Shown here: one piece after another, positions 22,691 through 23,332 of the stretch
How the letters are laid out: each line of letters begins with the position of its first letter
How positions within the stretch are numbered: position 1 is the first letter of the stretch
NCBI GenBank assembly: GCA_964372435.1
Contig: CAYJRI010000001.1
Span: forward strand, 8,813 to 33,150
Reading direction: 5' to 3'
DNA: 24,338 nucleotides
Origin: Candidatus Woesearchaeota archaeon
Lineage (GTDB): Archaea > Nanobdellota > Nanobdellia > Pacearchaeales > GW2011-AR1
Notes under the pieces: generated by a model
What the model saw: only the letters and a program-made list of their open reading frames with translations
What the model was told of the DNA's origin: nothing
Databases searched by the model: none
Made by a program: the position numbers and the translations under genes

Positions 22691-22863
22691 ATGATTTTTG
22701 TTATGAACACAAGAGTAAATAAGGAAGAAAGAAAAGAAAGAGCATGATTTTTGTTATGAACACAAGAGTAAATAAGGAAGAAAGAAAAGAAAGAGCATGA
22801 TTTTTGTTATGAACATTACATTAAATAAGGAAGAAAGAAAAGAAAGAGCATGATTTTTGTTAT
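22691..22863 (+). repeat. 53-bp tandem repeat, three copies plus the first 14 nt of spt5
   Basis: Units at 22691, 22744 and 22797; units 1 and 2 identical, unit 3 differs only in a 7-nt patch; each begins ATGATTTTTGTTAT, as does spt5 at 22850. Confidence 0.95.
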
Positions 22864-23332
22864 TAAAGTTACAACCAACAAGGAGGACAAAGCAGTAGAG
22901 ATGATTGCTGAAAAATTAGCGAAAGCCCCCTTAGAGACGAGAAATATCTACAGTCTTGCCAAACCGCATGGGCTGCGAGGATATTTCTTCCTAGAAGCTT
23001 CAGATCGACAAGCTGTTGAAGATGCAGTGTTTAATATGCCTTACATCAAAGGAATTGTTGGAAAAACCATTACCTATGAGTCAATTAAAAATATGATTGA
23101 GCCAGCAGTAACTGTCGTAAATATTCAAAAAGGAGATATTGTAGAAATCATTGGAGAACCTTTTAACAAAGAGAAAGCAAGAGTTTTACGAGTTGATGAG
23201 CAGAAAGAAGAAGTTGTTGTCACACTTTTAGGTGCAACTATTCCTATTCCTGTTACTGTAAAGTTAGATAATCTGAAAGTTATCCGCAGGGAAAAAGAAG
23301 AAGAGACTACACAGGAGGTTGACATCGAATGA
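22850..23332 (+). CDS. spt5: Transcription elongation factor Spt5/NusG
   Basis: NGN domain (V..NKE, L.GY.F.EA), then KOW GD.VEII..PF..EKARV. Confidence 0.96.
   Translation: MIFVIKVTTNKEDKAVEMIAEKLAKAPLETRNIYSLAKPHGLRGYFFLEASDRQAVEDAVFNMPYIKGIVGKTITYESIKNMIEPAVTVVNIQKGDIVEIIGEPFNKEKARVLRVDEQKEEVVVTLLGATIPIPVTVKLDNLKVIRREKEEETTQEVDIE

Follow-up and report, generated by a model that had tools for sequence, protein, structure and literature searches.

The window, the whole stretch of 24,338 nucleotides that was analysed, contains the gene for Spt5, the archaeal homologue of NusG. Among transcription factors, Spt5/NusG alone is conserved across all domains of life. The gene lies in the neighbourhood FKBP, ftsZ, secE, spt5 and rpl11, which is a classical archaeal gene arrangement. 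It is single-copy in the host genome, and orthologues were found in all 41 genomes searched (the host and 40 relatives). The spt5 ORF encodes 160 residues, and its Spt5-NGN domain begins at residue 1. The downstream rpl11 gene encodes a product of 238 residues, about 80 more than usual, with an Ala/Pro/Lys-rich low-complexity C-terminal tail after two L11 domains. Immediately upstream of spt5 lies a tandem array, which is preceded by a candidate promoter and a leader hairpin. The features are as follows, with the coordinates of the decoy ORFs including their stop codons.

22607 to 22625, plus strand: predicted ancestral spt5 core promoter, with a BRE-like AAAAG and the TATA element TTAATAAA at 22615-22622
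22646 to 22671, plus strand: conserved leader hairpin, with the 5´ arm CTGCTTCT, a loop and the 3´ arm AGGAGTAG
22691 to 22743, plus strand: unit 1, with its ATG at the ancestral spt5 start position; decoy ORF 1 spans 22691-22747
22744 to 22796, plus strand: unit 2, identical to unit 1 (53/53); decoy ORF 2 spans 22744-22800
22797 to 22849, plus strand: unit 3; decoy ORF 3 spans 22797-22853, and its TGA overlaps the spt5 ATG
22821 to 22828, plus strand: TTAAATAA in unit 3, at -29 to -22 from the spt5 ATG; a weak secondary-promoter candidate for a leaderless spt5 mRNA
22850 to 23332, plus strand: spt5, 160 aa, Pfam Spt5-NGN (E 1.2e-13)
23329 to 24045, plus strand: rpl11, with a native ATGA overlap with spt5 and GGAGG before it

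Tandem Repeats Finder reports the array at 22691-22863, with a period of 53, 3.3 copies, 96% matches and a score of 318. The first 14 nt of units 1 to 3 are the first 14 nt of spt5, which begins with a partial fourth unit. Unit 3 differs from units 1 and 2 at four clustered positions (offsets 20, 21, 23 and 25), and these changes alter three amino acids of its decoy peptide. Each decoy ORF has 18 codons, and all three junctions read ATGA, in which the TGA stop of one ORF overlaps the ATG that follows. The original prediction of a 53-bp repeat chain of ATGA-overlapping 18-codon ORFs that ends on the spt5 start is thus confirmed in its coordinates and peptides. The arithmetic is simple: 53 equals 3 x 18 - 1, and codon 18 of each decoy takes the A of the next ATG. 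Because the period is 2 mod 3 and the gene begins with ATGA (the family-conserved start is ATG-ATT), the overlaps are not designed and are an automatic outcome of the period and the gene start. The array unit is 51% A. An N-terminally extended Spt5 initiated at the unit 1 ATG was considered and rejected; this ATG lies 159 nt before that of spt5 and in the same frame, which is, however, interrupted by TGA stops. When the array sequence was compared with the whole genome, the sole match was the array itself, and the unit is unique. The unit junction has no exact match in the scanned metagenome contigs.

The unit resembles the gene that it precedes. Past the shared 14 nt, unit 3 matches spt5 at 21 of 39 positions (shuffle p 0.008), a level reached by only 0.03% of the 39-mers in the window, and unit 1 matches at 18 of 39. 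The earlier claim that similarity continues past the shared 14 nt therefore describes a real but modest signal. Register 0 is the best of the 25 registers tested for similarity between the unit and spt5. Over offsets 15-40, register 0 matches the family consensus at 16-17 of 26 positions and L052, one of the two closest relatives, at up to 19 of 26, compared with 7-14 matches in the other 24 registers. The 12-nt block AAATAAGGAAGA of the unit is L052 coding sequence at the same offsets. The A/G-rich tail of the unit (offsets 41-53) is without similarity to spt5 (4/13). The unit most likely consists of diverged spt5 nucleotides 1-40 and a 13-nt A/G-rich tail, which would make it a tandem duplication of the gene's own 5´ end. 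The resemblance of the decoy peptides to the Spt5 N-terminus had been read as mimicry; it is inherited from this duplication and is not functional mimicry. A small mobile insert with a 14-nt target duplication was rejected as a source, given that the unit is unique in the genome and its body matches spt5 in register.

The pattern of substitutions gives a relative age to the array. The units and the spt5 gene of the window share lineage-specific bases at positions 10, 12 and 33, whereas the family-consensus base at positions 27 and 36 survives in the units but has changed in the spt5 gene of the window. The first duplication therefore occurred within the lineage and is not brand new, and the identity of units 1 and 2 indicates a recent further duplication. 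ATGAT occurs twice in spt5, at nt 1 and at nt 52 (which encodes the family-conserved Met18-Ile19), both in the window and in close relatives, and these two sites, spaced by about one unit, form a natural candidate microhomology pair. All four copies share the same 14-nt head, whereas over the following 26 nt the units show 9-12 differences from spt5; had the head diverged at the rate of the body, this identity would be expected with p ~0.001. The identical heads hint at selection or homogenisation, which a purely neutral by-product does not explain. They could reflect selection on restart sites, or repeated expansion using the head as a homology arm.

The sequence upstream of unit 1 was scored with a promoter matrix trained on the host genome's own leaderless promoters (185 promoters). 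The site at 22607 is the best match in 22480-22870, with 11.3 bits against a promoter-set median of 12.0 and a random frequency of 0.00027, and its predicted transcript start is ~22644. The closest relatives, L052 and L054, carry an identical 17-nt promoter core, CCAAAAGATTAATAAAG, at the corresponding position. The leader hairpin ends 19 nt before the unit 1 ATG. It aligns with the leaders of 24 relatives, in which 10-24 nt separate it from the spt5 ATG, and three of the eight predicted pairs show compensatory changes. Most family members carry a TTTATAAA box ~65-80 nt before the spt5 ATG, a hairpin of the form CTACTTCT(T/C)...AGGAGGTAG or similar ~22 nt after the box, and as a third element a GGAGC/GGAAC motif with an A-rich stretch before the ATG.

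The spt5 loci of relatives were taken from 40 related genomes and from metagenome and genome collections, and in ~45 of these loci the promoter and the conserved hairpin stand directly before the spt5 ATG; the public-genome relatives are labelled Pacearchaeota, Nanoarchaeota or Woesearchaeota MAGs. The array is missing from the spt5 locus of 29 relatives of other genera and from 27 further loci in the collections, including those whose Spt5 is 82-86% identical. In these closest relatives, the promoter and the hairpin stand directly before the spt5 ATG without a repeat, whereas in the window they precede unit 1 and not the spt5 ATG directly. The array is thus most likely an insertion that separates the coding sequence from the ancestral leader, with the unit 1 ATG in the ancestral start place. 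Because the conserved promoter and leader lie upstream of unit 1, the decoy ORFs are most likely transcribed as leader, a conclusion drawn from the position of these elements. The folding of the array RNA is unremarkable (z -0.55), and the region 22200-23100 has no Rfam match at E<=1; together with the lack of the array in the examined relatives, these results do not support a regulatory leader peptide or attenuator.

The leader itself shows further features. Across the family (22607-22690 in the window and loci L003-L083), the 3´ arm of the hairpin carries an SD-like AGGAG, which is followed by the GGAGC motif, and the family leader could be a translational control element of the spt5-rpl11 operon. 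At 22672-22690, the window has 8-9 extra nt (tagcgaaa) relative to L052 between the SD-like motif and the unit 1 ATG, and the GGAGC of L052 is GGAAAC in the window before unit 1. The ancestral ribosome-binding site before unit 1 looks weakened in this comparison.

The host is an uncultured, Pacearchaeota-like archaeon, and its genome is a 1.01-Mb MAG of 150 contigs with 71% completeness and 28 gaps of 100 N, and 14 of the 42 comparable arrays described below touch a gap or contig end, so the array could be suspected to be an assembler-made artefact of a genome with one spt5 start. Contigs of k=31 built from the raw reads of four public runs were mapped onto the array region. The unit-to-unit junction is present in the read-derived contigs of X1, X2 and X3 (three runs from two studies) as a piece (22728-22773) that runs from a unit end through the 14-nt head into the beginning of a unit-1-type body; in X3, one uninterrupted piece spans 22725-22807. 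The junction k-mer depth in these three runs is similar to that of the flanks. The tandem junction thus exists in raw reads, and the repeat is not an assembly artefact, the outcome that had been named as fatal to the original prediction. The k=31 contigs break inside the array because the repeat is longer than k; their depth is not readable as copy number, and the unit count is that of the MAG assembly alone. The gap in contig cover at 22811-22833 holds the unit-3 variant and is uninformative, as contigs drop minor branches; the variant rests on the single MAG assembly. These breaks, the uncovered variant, the scaffolded assembly and the arrays at gaps or contig ends favour an artefact. Against it stand the junction k-mers in runs from two studies, the divergence of the units from one another and from spt5, and the behaviour of the arrays elsewhere in the genome, which avoid ORF interiors, are in frame in the two cases within ORFs and hold diverged copies in 17 of 42. 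We regard an artefact as extremely unlikely. One low-depth contig of X2 (depth 2) is ~90% identical to window positions 22849-22919 and has a leader-like, repeat-free upstream sequence; it belongs to a co-occurring relative.

The spt5 array belongs to a class of repeats that extends over the host genome. We found 42 tandem arrays with a period of 42-60 nt (mean 51.7, sd 4.2), whose unit sequences are unrelated to each other. Repeat periods are bimodal, with short periods and a hump at 42-60 nt, almost none at 31-41 nt and two loci above 60 nt. Most arrays have 2-3 copies and several have three; examples are C10:9001-9109, C10:11577-11729, C68:1049-1199 and C18:5971-6264. The copies are identical in 25 of the 42 arrays and diverged (82-99%) in the other 17. 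Only two arrays lie wholly within the interior of an ORF of at least 100 codons, compared with 28.8 expected (minimum 19 in 2000 randomisations), and both have a period of 51, a multiple of three. The avoidance of ORF interiors, the in-frame periods within ORFs and the diverged copies argue that the arrays are real mutations filtered by selection; the raw-read check among the 42 covered the spt5 array. Of the 14 arrays at a contig end or a 100-N gap, the unit resumes across the gap in 5-6, suggesting arrays longer than short reads could span. At least 10 genes have a near-exact copy of their own start 43-69 nt upstream. In the other start-spanning duplications, the decoy ORFs end within ~25 nt of the real start, which has no power to test selection because random ORF lengths in an AT-rich genome would match this pattern.

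No array of 42-60 nt period was found in ~1.08 Mb sampled from relatives, which comprised 200 kb from each of three genomes, 100 kb from another genome, 97 kb spread over 29 genera and 283 kb from metagenome and genome contigs. In two sampled relatives, short-period repeats occur at about the same frequency as in the host genome, and the sampled relatives share the leaderless promoter geometry of the host. Loss of the flap endonuclease was rejected as an explanation for the arrays, as Fen1 (XPG_I) is present in the host genome with an open 340-aa frame. The idea that the arrays are duplicated core-promoter modules is not supported, as only 6 of 42 adjoin a gene start with TATA at -31 to -26. 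Many arrays have only 0-2 nt of microhomology.

Two other arrays deserve mention. On the minus strand at 19476-19679, upstream of the S2P gene (18036-19475), there are three decayed copies of the S2P start, with ATGAGTTT-like heads ~52-55 nt apart; the heads are kept and the tails have diverged. This array has the same pattern as the spt5 array, but is older. At C52:4765-4923 in the host genome, a 57-nt unit in 2.8 copies consists, by eye, of the 3´ half of a tRNA gene (a T-arm-like GGCAGTTCGATTCTGCC and the 3´ acceptor end) and 22 nt of downstream DNA.

These observations are best accommodated if the spt5 array is a lineage-specific tandem duplication (a minisatellite) that is tolerated via termination-reinitiation and is no purpose-built regulator, a reading to which we assign a probability of roughly 0.55. 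Transcription would begin at the ancestral promoter, near 22644, and ribosomes would initiate at the unit 1 ATG, the ancestral start position. They would translate 18 codons, stop at the TGA that overlaps the next ATG and reinitiate there; Spt5 would be translated after three such hand-overs. Archaeal precedent exists: ATGA pairs in Haloferax volcanii are strictly coupled by termination-reinitiation, in a study in which 13 of 14 tested pairs (9 from H. volcanii and 5 from E. coli) behaved in this way (PMC6728339). The insertion at the start of an essential gene was probably tolerated because of the accidental ATGA overlaps, and the array looks like a tolerated mutational by-product of the duplication process that left ~40 arrays. 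If the array alters Spt5 translation at all, it is expected to lower it.

The relay has weak points. None of the three junctions has GGAG, GAGG, AGGA, GGTG or GTGA at -16 to -5, so reinitiation could be of low efficiency, and the losses over three consecutive steps might make Spt5 too scarce. In H. volcanii, removal of the SD lowered reinitiation but never abolished it, and the SD is not essential (PMC6728339). A further point against the relay is the SD of the unit 1 ATG, which appears degraded and displaced by 8-9 nt relative to L052. We give the three-step relay about an even chance of being the route to Spt5 and consider it more likely than a leaderless promoter in unit 3.

That promoter is the strongest competitor as a source of Spt5. 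The four substitutions of unit 3 would have made a TATA element at -29, spt5 would be mainly leaderless, and the upstream units would be inert remnants or be present in short transcripts only. Leaderless genes abound in the host genome: among its 875 long ORFs, ~180 are of this type, with TATA at -29 to -22, and its internal genes have an SD at -12 to -8. A sharp peak of TATA-like hexamers at -29 to -27 from the first ATG is seen for about one-fifth of long ORFs in the host and in the relatives G002, G023 and G017, and predicted leaderless transcription with fixed geometry is common in this archaeal family; the spt5 mRNA itself is predicted to be leadered across the family. TTAAATAA is exactly in the register of the TATA peak, is the only array site that scores above zero (1.6 bits, random frequency 0.006) and scores higher than the version of the site in units 1 and 2. 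The lack of a well-placed SD at the junctions and before unit 1 also fits leaderless initiation. The score, however, is far from the 8.3 bits that mark the 5th percentile of the host's 185 promoters, and the site is without a BRE-like GAAAG and without the TTTATAAAC core. Moreover, transcription from the strong conserved promoter, which at 22607 is 206 nt further upstream than the unit-3 site at 22813, would run through the array. The TTAAATA element that had been singled out 29 nt before the spt5 ATG is thus correctly placed, at 22821-22827 in promoter register, but with 1.6 bits it does not have the strength of a promoter, and a mainly leaderless spt5 is unlikely. Independent initiation at each ATG was also considered, with the A/G-rich unstructured tail as a loading site and decoys that would only compete with spt5 and neither relay nor block translation. 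The ATGs of unit 2, unit 3 and spt5 share at least 29 nt of identical upstream sequence, the unit is 51% A, and the region is unstructured. These contexts contain no SD-like motif at the SD peak distance of the host (-12 to -8), and their identity would give spt5 only about one-third of the starts; we consider this mode very unlikely.

A different question is whether selection keeps the array as a dosage controller, in which the number of units tunes Spt5 and the downstream coupled ribosomal protein genes. Serial reinitiation should multiply losses, with each unit lowering the output (as inferred from PMC6728339), and the identical units 1 and 2 imply a recent change in unit number. The array has also persisted, as the first duplication predates at least two substitutions in the parent gene, and its heads are perfectly kept in four copies while the unit bodies have diverged. 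The same heads are also expected if expansion uses the head as a microhomology arm. The peptide is not conserved (three amino-acid changes in unit 3), the array occurs in one lineage only, and the size class to which it belongs comprises 42 arrays at unrelated loci. The proposal of the original prediction that copy number could tune Spt5 expression is not supported, given the absence of the array from all relatives examined and its membership in this class, and an evolved controller is distinctly unlikely. The common period of these arrays, 51.7 nt on average, raises a broader proposal that combines three elements: an undescribed lineage-specific, length-measuring process that duplicates ~52 +/- 4 nt regardless of sequence (a replication-linked or protein-set ruler of about five helical turns), decoy starts that relay ribosomes and keep the gene-start products usable, and selection on the relay behind the identical heads and decayed bodies at spt5 and S2P. 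We hold this combination as a possible but rather doubtful explanation.

Returning to tolerated duplication with reinitiation as the preferred reading, the spt5 array would fit known kinds, namely microhomology duplication in its origin and stop-start coupled short ORFs in its likely working. Microhomology-mediated tandem duplications are described as universal and as depleted from coding regions (PMC13167724). They are likewise head-to-tail copies of a single-copy segment with a flanking partial copy (PMC13167724; bioRxiv 10.64898/2026.02.28.708716). The spt5 array has expanded to three units in the manner of microhomology-seeded repeats, and the arrays of the host are depleted from coding interiors, as such duplications are. 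The host arrays differ in that their period is locked at 42-60 nt and that the relatives have none; the passages of PMC13167724 and bioRxiv 10.64898/2026.02.28.708716 that were consulted describe no such lock. Known coupled uORFs (PMC6728339; reviewed in PMC12548453) likewise have a 4-nt stop/start overlap and a short ORF that could deliver the ribosome. The spt5 array would require three serial hand-overs instead of one, its restart sites are without an SD motif, and its decoys are decayed copies of the gene's own start; coupling here is a prediction from the sequence.

Two repeat families offer closer likenesses in form. MIRUs, as summarised in PMC12548453, are likewise tandem units of ~50 nt at start codons with an internal ORF coupled at -4 nt, and this coupling is thought to let the unit insert while expression stays largely unaffected. 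As a mycobacterial family, however, MIRUs are dispersed and apparently mobile, with related sequence at many loci, whereas the spt5 unit derives from the adjacent gene in an archaeon; because the unit is unique in the genome, the array is not a dispersed family of the MIRU type. The Borg elements of Methanoperedens (PMC9879509) likewise carry many locus-private, mostly perfect repeats that are virtually absent from related genomes. Like the host arrays, Borg repeats are A-rich, have partial flanking repeats and occur within ORFs only as in-frame units. About half of the Borg repeats are within ORFs and the units are short (e.g. 18-21 nt) (PMC9879509), whereas nearly all host arrays lie outside ORF interiors and the period is locked near 52 nt.

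The start of an essential gene behind three decoys shows how much disruption can be absorbed when stop-start overlaps allow ribosome hand-over, and with 0 units in relatives and 3 in the window, the spt5 locus provides a natural test case for serial archaeal reinitiation. The genome-wide lock at ~52 nt is more surprising than the spt5 array itself. If this lock in one DPANN lineage is real at the DNA level, it would point to a mutational process with a built-in ruler. Such a process would inflate spacers, make false gene starts and ends, and fragment short-read assemblies, and false starts and spurious small ORFs are to be expected when such genomes are annotated.
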